A DNA stretch of 64,000 nt from the NCBI GenBank assembly GCA_964016885.1, contig OZ024759.1, positions 25,730,001 through 25,794,000 of the forward strand, in the 5' to 3' direction. This DNA is from Eledone cirrhosa. Taxonomy: Eukaryota. Of this stretch, positions 8,377 to 8,537 are shown in pieces. The position numbers and the translations under genes were made by a program. Below the pieces are notes generated by a model. That model worked only from the letters and a program-made list of their open reading frames with translations, was not told the DNA's origin and did no database searches. Numbering within the stretch: the first letter of the stretch is position 1; the number at the start of each line of letters is the position of its first letter.

Positions 8377-8381
<5 letters not shown>

Positions 8382-8534
8382 CGAGTAGGACCCCGACGGC
8401 TGAGCTCAAGCCGTCGAAACGGCTTGAGCTCAGCCGTCGGGGTCCTACTCGTTCCTATTACCCACTCTACTACCCTAAGTATTGAGTACTTTGGTGCGTT
8501 ATGGTCCATCTGGTTCCTTACCACATTTCCTTCG

Positions 8535-8537
<3 letters not shown>
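8377..8537 (+). mobile_element. Family A hairpin element (Penelope-like pLTR remnant) with the 3' half of a hammerhead ribozyme
   Basis: Perfect 38-bp stem (8377-8414/8419-8456, loop CGAA). Contains GAAAC-GGCU-UGAGCUC-AGCC-GUC. Conserved tail tattacccactctactaccctaagtat runs into (TA)n. Confidence 0.75.

Follow-up and report, generated by a model that had tools for sequence, protein, structure and literature searches.

Abundant short hairpin elements in (TA)n microsatellites of Eledone cirrhosa as likely non-autonomous derivatives of Hydra-clade PLEs

Elements of family A are ~150-200 nt long, abundant and set in (TA)n microsatellites. They probably descend, as non-autonomous elements, from the 3' end of a Hydra-clade Penelope-like element (PLE), whose reverse transcriptase and GIY-YIG endonuclease would copy them in trans; the hammerhead's front half was probably lost in the master before the inversions that give the copies their hairpin form. 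How would such an element move? In the model that we favor, a Hydra-type reverse transcriptase-endonuclease would mobilise family A in trans: the protein would bind the tail stem-loop and nick (TA)n, and cDNA synthesis would begin at the far end. In part of the insertions, the new strand would snap back on a short native palindrome that lies 0-25 nt before GAAA, then recopy itself as far as the tailless end, leaving a hairpin. The hairpin anatomy is known already as a product of Penelope-type integration; what is new is the clade-wide tail stem-loop and the conserved hammerhead back half without its front half.

The window, that is, the whole 64,000-nucleotide stretch of DNA analysed, has 32% GC, and simple repeat makes up 44% of it. 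An earlier note, made from the sequence alone, had placed four copies of family A at 8377, 24781, 63672 and 63905; all four are there, with the following parts.

8377..8414, minus: copy 1, inverted tailless arm, identical to the right arm (37/37)
8409..8424: copy 1, junction on a native palindrome of 6 bp, AGCCGT-CGAA-ACGGCT, which recurs in the copy 2 sense strand
8416..8438, plus: copy 1, hammerhead-like back half (GAAA, helix III with palindromic loop, GUC)
8457..8536, plus: copy 1, tail, with (TA)n next
8465..8489, plus: copy 1, tail stem-loop, CTC-stem-loop-stem-2 nt bulge-GAG-YAC, common to Hydra-clade PLEs
24781..24831, minus: copy 2, inverted tailless arm, start within (TA)n, motif at 24800-24822
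24832..24853: copy 2, hairpin centre, resembling a short native stem-loop of un-inverted copies
24862..24884, plus: copy 2, hammerhead-like back half
24904..24982, plus: copy 2, tail, between the family's two fixed 3' ends
24911..24935, plus: copy 2, tail stem-loop
63672..63781: copy 3, hairpin, left-arm motif intact (63692-63714, minus), right-arm helix III mostly deleted
63782..63850, plus: copy 3, tail, with stem-loop at 63790-63814, then (TA)n
63905..63958, minus: copy 4, inverted tailless arm, more diverged, motif at 63915-63937
63965..64000, plus: copy 4, right piece, starting just before the tail stem-loop and cut by the window end
63973..63997: copy 4, tail stem-loop with one change

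All four window copies carry a 5'-truncated, head-to-head inverted copy, and opposite-strand joints are found in reads as well; in all four, the tailless end is the one on the inverted arm. The tails of copies 1-3 (69-80 nt) run into (TA)n, as first described: the three complete right ends lie in (TA)n, as do three of the four left ends, while the left end of copy 1 adjoins (GA)n, not (TA)n. Because the flanks are (TA)n, the TSD is unreadable. The hairpin of copy 1 (8377-8456) indeed consists of 38 perfect pairs around a CGAA loop (z -13.7); that of copy 2 is longer and imperfect (z -15.7); that of copy 3, likewise longer and imperfect (z -6.9), has a right arm without most of helix III. Directly to the left of copy 1 stands a (TC)n(GA)n palindrome (8302-8378), so that two perfect hairpins lie back to back.

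Reads or contigs from 4 of 20 runs were aligned to copy 2 at 80% likeness. Run X1 holds contig records of the window's species, and X18 is a RAD library of the same species, and biased as such. Copy 2 is matched by 16,186 contig records in X1 and by 20,907 of 12,467,656 raw reads in X18, and by three records in each of two other organisms; for an assumed genome size near 3 Gb, tens of thousands of copies are likely. The reads reveal two fixed 3' ends, 20 and 98 nt downstream of GUC. The tailed end lies at 24982-24989, with (TA)n behind 24989 (7,879 reads in X18, 245 contigs in X1) and a variant behind 24971 (898 reads); the tailless end lies behind 24904 and is followed by (TA)n too (1,198 reads in X18, 181 contigs in X1), the depth at its mirrored left end being 2,670. 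The subfamily of copy 3 is abundant, with 1,723 reads clipped at 24896. Of the 108 variable places listed in X18, 43 are C>T or G>A, a share that would be expected of ageing methylated repeats, and most genomic copies are likely inert.

Could family A be a DNA element with TA targets, either a TIR MITE or a foldback element, whose hammerhead-like motif is due to chance? The long inverted repeat, the TA on both sides and the high copy number would suit such an element, and one that looks like a true MITE, with ~37-bp terminal inverted repeats and (TA)n on both sides, stands in the same window (31205-31343). Yet the inverted repeat of family A is not terminal, as 69-80 nt extend beyond it at one end; X18 has ~2.6 tailed ends for every tailless one (~0.4 tailless per tailed); un-inverted copies exist; and the tail motif is found in RT-encoding Hydra PLEs too. 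We give this origin next to no credence: the one-sided tail and the un-inverted copies largely refute a TIR MITE with TSDs, the outcome against which the earlier note had set its reading in advance. A tRNA-like head was sought as well: ARAGORN, which is insensitive for SINE heads, called no tRNA in the window, and A and B boxes at a workable spacing were absent by eye.

The link of family A to PLEs is narrowed to the Hydra clade by the bulged stem-loop in its tail. This stem-loop was spotted first in the tail of Hydra-2_Ajap, and two further ends, those of Hydra-2_Amil and Hydra-1_Crog, were then fetched as a check. Compared by eye, the descriptor is exact in Hydra-2_Ajap, Hydra-2_Amil and Hydra-1_Ajap (start) and has one mismatch in Hydra-1_Crog. 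In all, four of six published Hydra-clade PLE consensus sequences (coral, sea cucumber, sea louse) carry it; by eye, it was not seen in the parts compared of the other two, Hydra-1_Obim, which is the one Octopus element, and Hydra-1_Amil. The stems differ yet pair (TACT/AGTA, TGCT/AGCA, TACAC/GTGTA, TGTCC/GGACA, CAGT/ACTG), and, within family A, the three variable places listed inside the stem-loop are all unpaired (p ~0.03, post hoc, among the best 40 of 112 rows). The strict descriptor matches one in 100,000 random 110-mers and, in the window, copies 1-3 only; a relaxed one adds a member of another set of elements, family B, at 22469. Scans of metagenome, viral and prokaryote contigs gave no match to the family A tail pattern. 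A covarying stem shared by Hydra-clade elements from four phyla and by family A makes the stem-loop a candidate cis-signal, in a clade without biochemical study. The literature open to search, to which subscription papers and Repbase do not belong, yielded no description of it.

The earlier claim of a PLE-type origin with (TA)n targeting is thus supported, and it rests on the inverted copy, the one-sided tail, the (TA)n flanks and the Hydra tail stem-loop. In the part of the source available, EN+ PLEs show this same anatomy (a 5'-truncated copy in inverted orientation, a one-sided tail and a bias to (TA)n), and 26 of 27 Hydra-clade rows, one of them from Octopus, list (TA)n as target (PMC8557442). 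That family A is likely non-autonomous, as had been supposed, is borne out by the lack of an RT or GIY-YIG ORF in the window and by a 3' tail motif found in autonomous Hydra members too. The search for an upstream PLE ORF gave no RT or GIY-YIG Pfam match among the 104 ORFs of the window, and this lack of an autonomous partner in the window counts against the derivation preferred here, as does a tail of ~78 nt, longer than the published 30-40 nt. For a suspected PLE remnant at 62543-62803, no relative turned up. The Octopus Naiad elements, which combine (TA)n with a "half core", were considered as partners and dropped: by eye, their 3' ends are unlike the family A tail. The 3' ends of Naiad_Obim and Naiad_Ovul carry GAAA ~25 nt before CUGAUGA (PMC8557442, supplement, in the part available), an order that suggests a permuted hammerhead-like fold, by eye unrelated to family A.

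How does family A compare with systems already described, as far as the available parts of the sources go? Like family A, the C-terminal EN+ PLEs of the Hydra clade (Craig et al., 2021; PMC8557442) target (TA)n and carry a hammerhead-type motif ~90-115 nt from the tailed 3' end, and an inverted 5'-truncated copy is listed for Penelope-13_HM. Unlike them, family A has no ORF and measures ~150-200 nt, not 2-3 kb; CUGANGA is absent from it, while the Hydra clade is described as having canonical hammerheads throughout; and its helix III exceeds theirs in length and has a palindromic loop of 6 nt, in contrast to the 1-3 nt loops of the Hydra rows. The Penelope elements of Adineta vaga (Arkhipova et al., 2013; PMC3846280) form inverted pseudo-LTR insertions with palindromic junctions and share with family A the head-to-head copies and the tail on one side only, but they are low-copy and have ORFs, a 31-bp tail and readable 8-10 bp TSDs, whereas family A is high-copy, with no ORF, a ~78-nt tail and an unreadable TSD. 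In the lizard element PAc Poseidon (Frangieh et al., 2024; PMC11167929), which was studied in vitro, two RT starts delimit the tail and the target is AT-rich, as in family A. Non-LTR retrozymes and minimal PLE hammerheads (PMC4209133; PMC7229834; bioRxiv 10.64898/2026.07.22.740005) resemble family A in being short, non-coding and PLE-related, with a palindromic loop 3, and the same sources note opposite-strand motif pairs in Schistosoma; retrozymes, however, form head-to-tail tandems with complete type I ribozymes, while family A is dispersed, monomeric or head-to-head, and without the front half. A paper on O. vulgaris repeats names, in the part available, neither hammerheads nor hairpins (PMC13282606).

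The second conserved part of family A is the hammerhead-like back half, described in the earlier note as present on one or both arms of every copy. The 23-nt motif GAAACGGC-NN-GAGCTC-N-GCCGTC recurs exactly at 8416 (plus), 24862 (plus), 63692-63714 (minus) and 63915-63937 (minus), and with one mismatch at 24800-24822 (minus), for a total of five arms; 100 shuffles of the window gave no match. Even the looser combination of GAAA, at least four further pairs and GUC arose by chance in only 9 of 5,000 shuffles. Across subfamilies, 20 of the 23 positions are invariant, as compared to 8 of 25 in the flanks (p 1.4e-4, post hoc, with the motif defined on the very copies tested). The back half is placed relative to the 3' end as in Hydra hammerheads: the distance from cut site to end is 97 nt in Hydra-2_Amil and 98 nt in family A. 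We read it as hammerhead-derived. The core pattern had no match in viral contigs; four matches in metagenome contigs (69-72% GC, with neither tail nor CUGANGA) were taken as chance.

The CUGANGA half is missing, as had been noticed: no exact CUGANGA lies inside or within ~60 nt of any window copy, a CUGANGA box with the 5' strand of helix I is absent from seven arms in the window, and none of the eight window matches to a complete type I hammerhead descriptor falls in family A. As the tail contains no CUGANGA, a type II or III layout, in which the core would follow downstream, was rejected. Rfam reported no hammerhead among the matches listed (150 of 606; 23; 3), a blank that says little since the same search, in its 23 rows, overlooked the family B hammerhead motif too; Rfam matches to miRNA families were far below thresholds and come from hairpins and microsatellites. 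At the predicted cut site, read depth does not rise and no common start is listed, in line with uncut RNA serving as template in vitro (PMC11167929, in the part available). For PAc Poseidon, the same source finds hammerhead cleavage unnecessary for insertion, which allows for the loss of the front half in family A; in turn, a family that has likely risen to tens of thousands of copies with no catalytic front half fits that in vitro result.

If the front half is gone, where did it go? According to the earlier note, each inversion was primed on the ribozyme's own helix II and replaced the front half, so that un-inverted copies should carry CUGANGA upstream. Un-inverted copies do exist: loose ends before 24844 occur in 138 contigs of X1 and 1,022 reads of X18, as well as in one contig of X9 and two contigs of X5. 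Upstream of 24844, an AT-rich stretch of ~14 letters agrees, after which the strings differ between runs; this suggests a 5' boundary ~33 nt before GAAA. The strings come from 17 of the 419 loose-end rows, with 30 letters each and an agreement of 0.41-0.5 in the large groups, and copy-3-type un-inverted members are not among them. The predicted CUGANGA-helix II is found in none of the six upstream strings listed, and none of the six holds a partner for the strand before GAAA, with which the AT-rich stretch is unable to pair. In one string, from X1, there is an ATGAT that may be what is left of a blurred core, at an agreement of only 0.5. Within 17 of 419 rows and 30 letters each, then, no un-inverted copy carries CUGANGA upstream, which is the first of the outcomes that the earlier note had named as refuting its reading; both the predicted form and the proposed priming site are without support in this material. 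To name the hairpin centre helix II is an interpretation and not an observation; on the strings listed, it is the inversion that gives the hairpins their apparent helix II.

The joints seen in reads bear on the same question. In 14 of the 15 listed (of 24), one side lies at 24828-24850, and the other side is scattered over 24872-24953; the clustering is partly forced by the use of copy 2 as reference, as likeness to un-inverted copies stops at 24844. This clustering is what would be seen if family A had a parent PLE with an intact type I hammerhead, the cDNA snapping back on a true helix II and CUGANGA being replaced at each insertion. Such a parent would also account for the placement of the back half, for its rarity by chance and for its conservation above that of the flanks; moreover, an AT-rich 119-nt hairpin at 8693-8811, whose arms start with the GAAA stretch of a hammerhead at 18086, turns just upstream of GAAA like that of the 18086 hammerhead, and the upstream strings leave out un-inverted copy-3-type members. 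We nonetheless consider it unlikely: apart from the six strings and the partly forced clustering, copy 1 turns on the core's own CGAA, without a helix II, and in family B the turn comes before CUGAUGA and lies outside helix II.

What, then, do the hairpins turn on? In copies 1 and 2, the junction falls on a short native palindrome. This supports the earlier expectation that breakpoints are not random and fits the self-priming proposed for PLEs, specifically at the palindromic junctions of Adineta Penelope elements (PMC3846280, in the part available). In un-hairpinned RNA, the junction palindrome of copy 1 competes with helix III (-14.0 vs -13.0 kcal/mol). The reported variation of hairpin centres can be refined: copy 1 has no separate centre, its loop being the core CGAA, and the centres of copies 2, 3 and 4 are not unrelated but homologous, with 7 of 17 aligned positions invariant. 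Other copies differ from copy 2 at the centre or tip by deletions of 1-9 nt (11 rows). The two arms of one copy carry common subfamily-specific letters (37/37 in copy 1), which implies at least two or three separate inversions. The hairpins are probably ordinary head-to-head insertions, not folds on a working ribozyme; they may arise anew at each insertion or be copied from masters that were hairpins already. With so many junctions in family A, counts of them would put the self-priming model to the test.

Alternatively, the hairpins could be younger than the insertions, a quasi-palindrome having been perfected by template switching at the DNA level in replication or repair. Junctions on short native palindromes and unstable tips, with their many small deletions, are what template switching would produce; random repair, however, would leave scattered ends, whereas the inverted arm stops at one fixed place (24904 and its mirror), abutting the microsatellite. 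This fixed stop matches the one-sided PLE tail described in the available parts of published accounts (PMC8557442; PMC3846280), and we regard a post-insertion origin as very improbable.

Under the preferred derivation from a Hydra-clade 3' end, the front half was probably lost in the family A master before these inversions, and the hairpins therefore probably did not destroy a working ribozyme. Why would a back half be kept? It may be a substrate cleaved in trans by way of its palindromic loop, a protein-binding site or a recent inheritance; the palindromic loop 3 is of the kind used by dimeric hammerheads (PMC4209133, in the part available). In its boldest form, the first possibility would make family A a substrate-only ribozyme parasite: its back half would be selected, its palindrome would pair with a partner hammerhead that cuts it in trans, and its tail stem-loop would be a clade-wide RNA recognition signal of Hydra PLEs, from corals to cephalopods. 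We find this scenario distinctly unlikely. The hairpins themselves may be Dicer or ADAR substrates, as the earlier note had proposed. A second, weaker pattern of GAA, short stem and UH lies just upstream of the main GAAA (24844-24861; 63938-63954, minus) and stands out best in copy 4; chance often yields stems of 2-3 pairs (1,345 of 5,000 shuffles).

Family B comprises hairpin-plus-tail elements at 19168-19400, 22330-22510 and 25321-25480. Its type I hammerhead is complete and follows the Hydra format (core at 25351, plus, and 19223, minus), its tail carries the family A stem-loop in relaxed form, and its turn lies upstream of CUGAUGA or is asymmetric. The Hydra format and the relaxed tail motif of this sister family speak for the derivation of family A from a Hydra-clade PLE. 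Two results weigh against it: the two cores are without sequence likeness (at best 74/1,000 shuffles), and the likeness of the tails is modest, with five of nine pairs at 35/1,000 shuffles or fewer. The stretch upstream of the family A GAAA showed no significant likeness to the family B core (219-423/1,000 shuffles).

Other elements share the window, on which repeat finder output was dominated by microsatellites. The minimal hammerhead at 18086 (minus) belongs to an element with 22-nt inverted ends (18001-18180), and a related fragment lies at 10983-11037. A lone minimal hammerhead with a complete core, typical of PLE ends, occupies 8920-8965 (minus). SINE-like copies cluster as inverted pairs around (AAT)n runs at 59900-61250 and 52350-52700. 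Finally, a repeat at 33411-33581 matches a C2H2 zinc finger once, short of the curated cut-off (E 6e-05); the repeat recurs near 34870 and 43470 and is probably a retroelement fragment.
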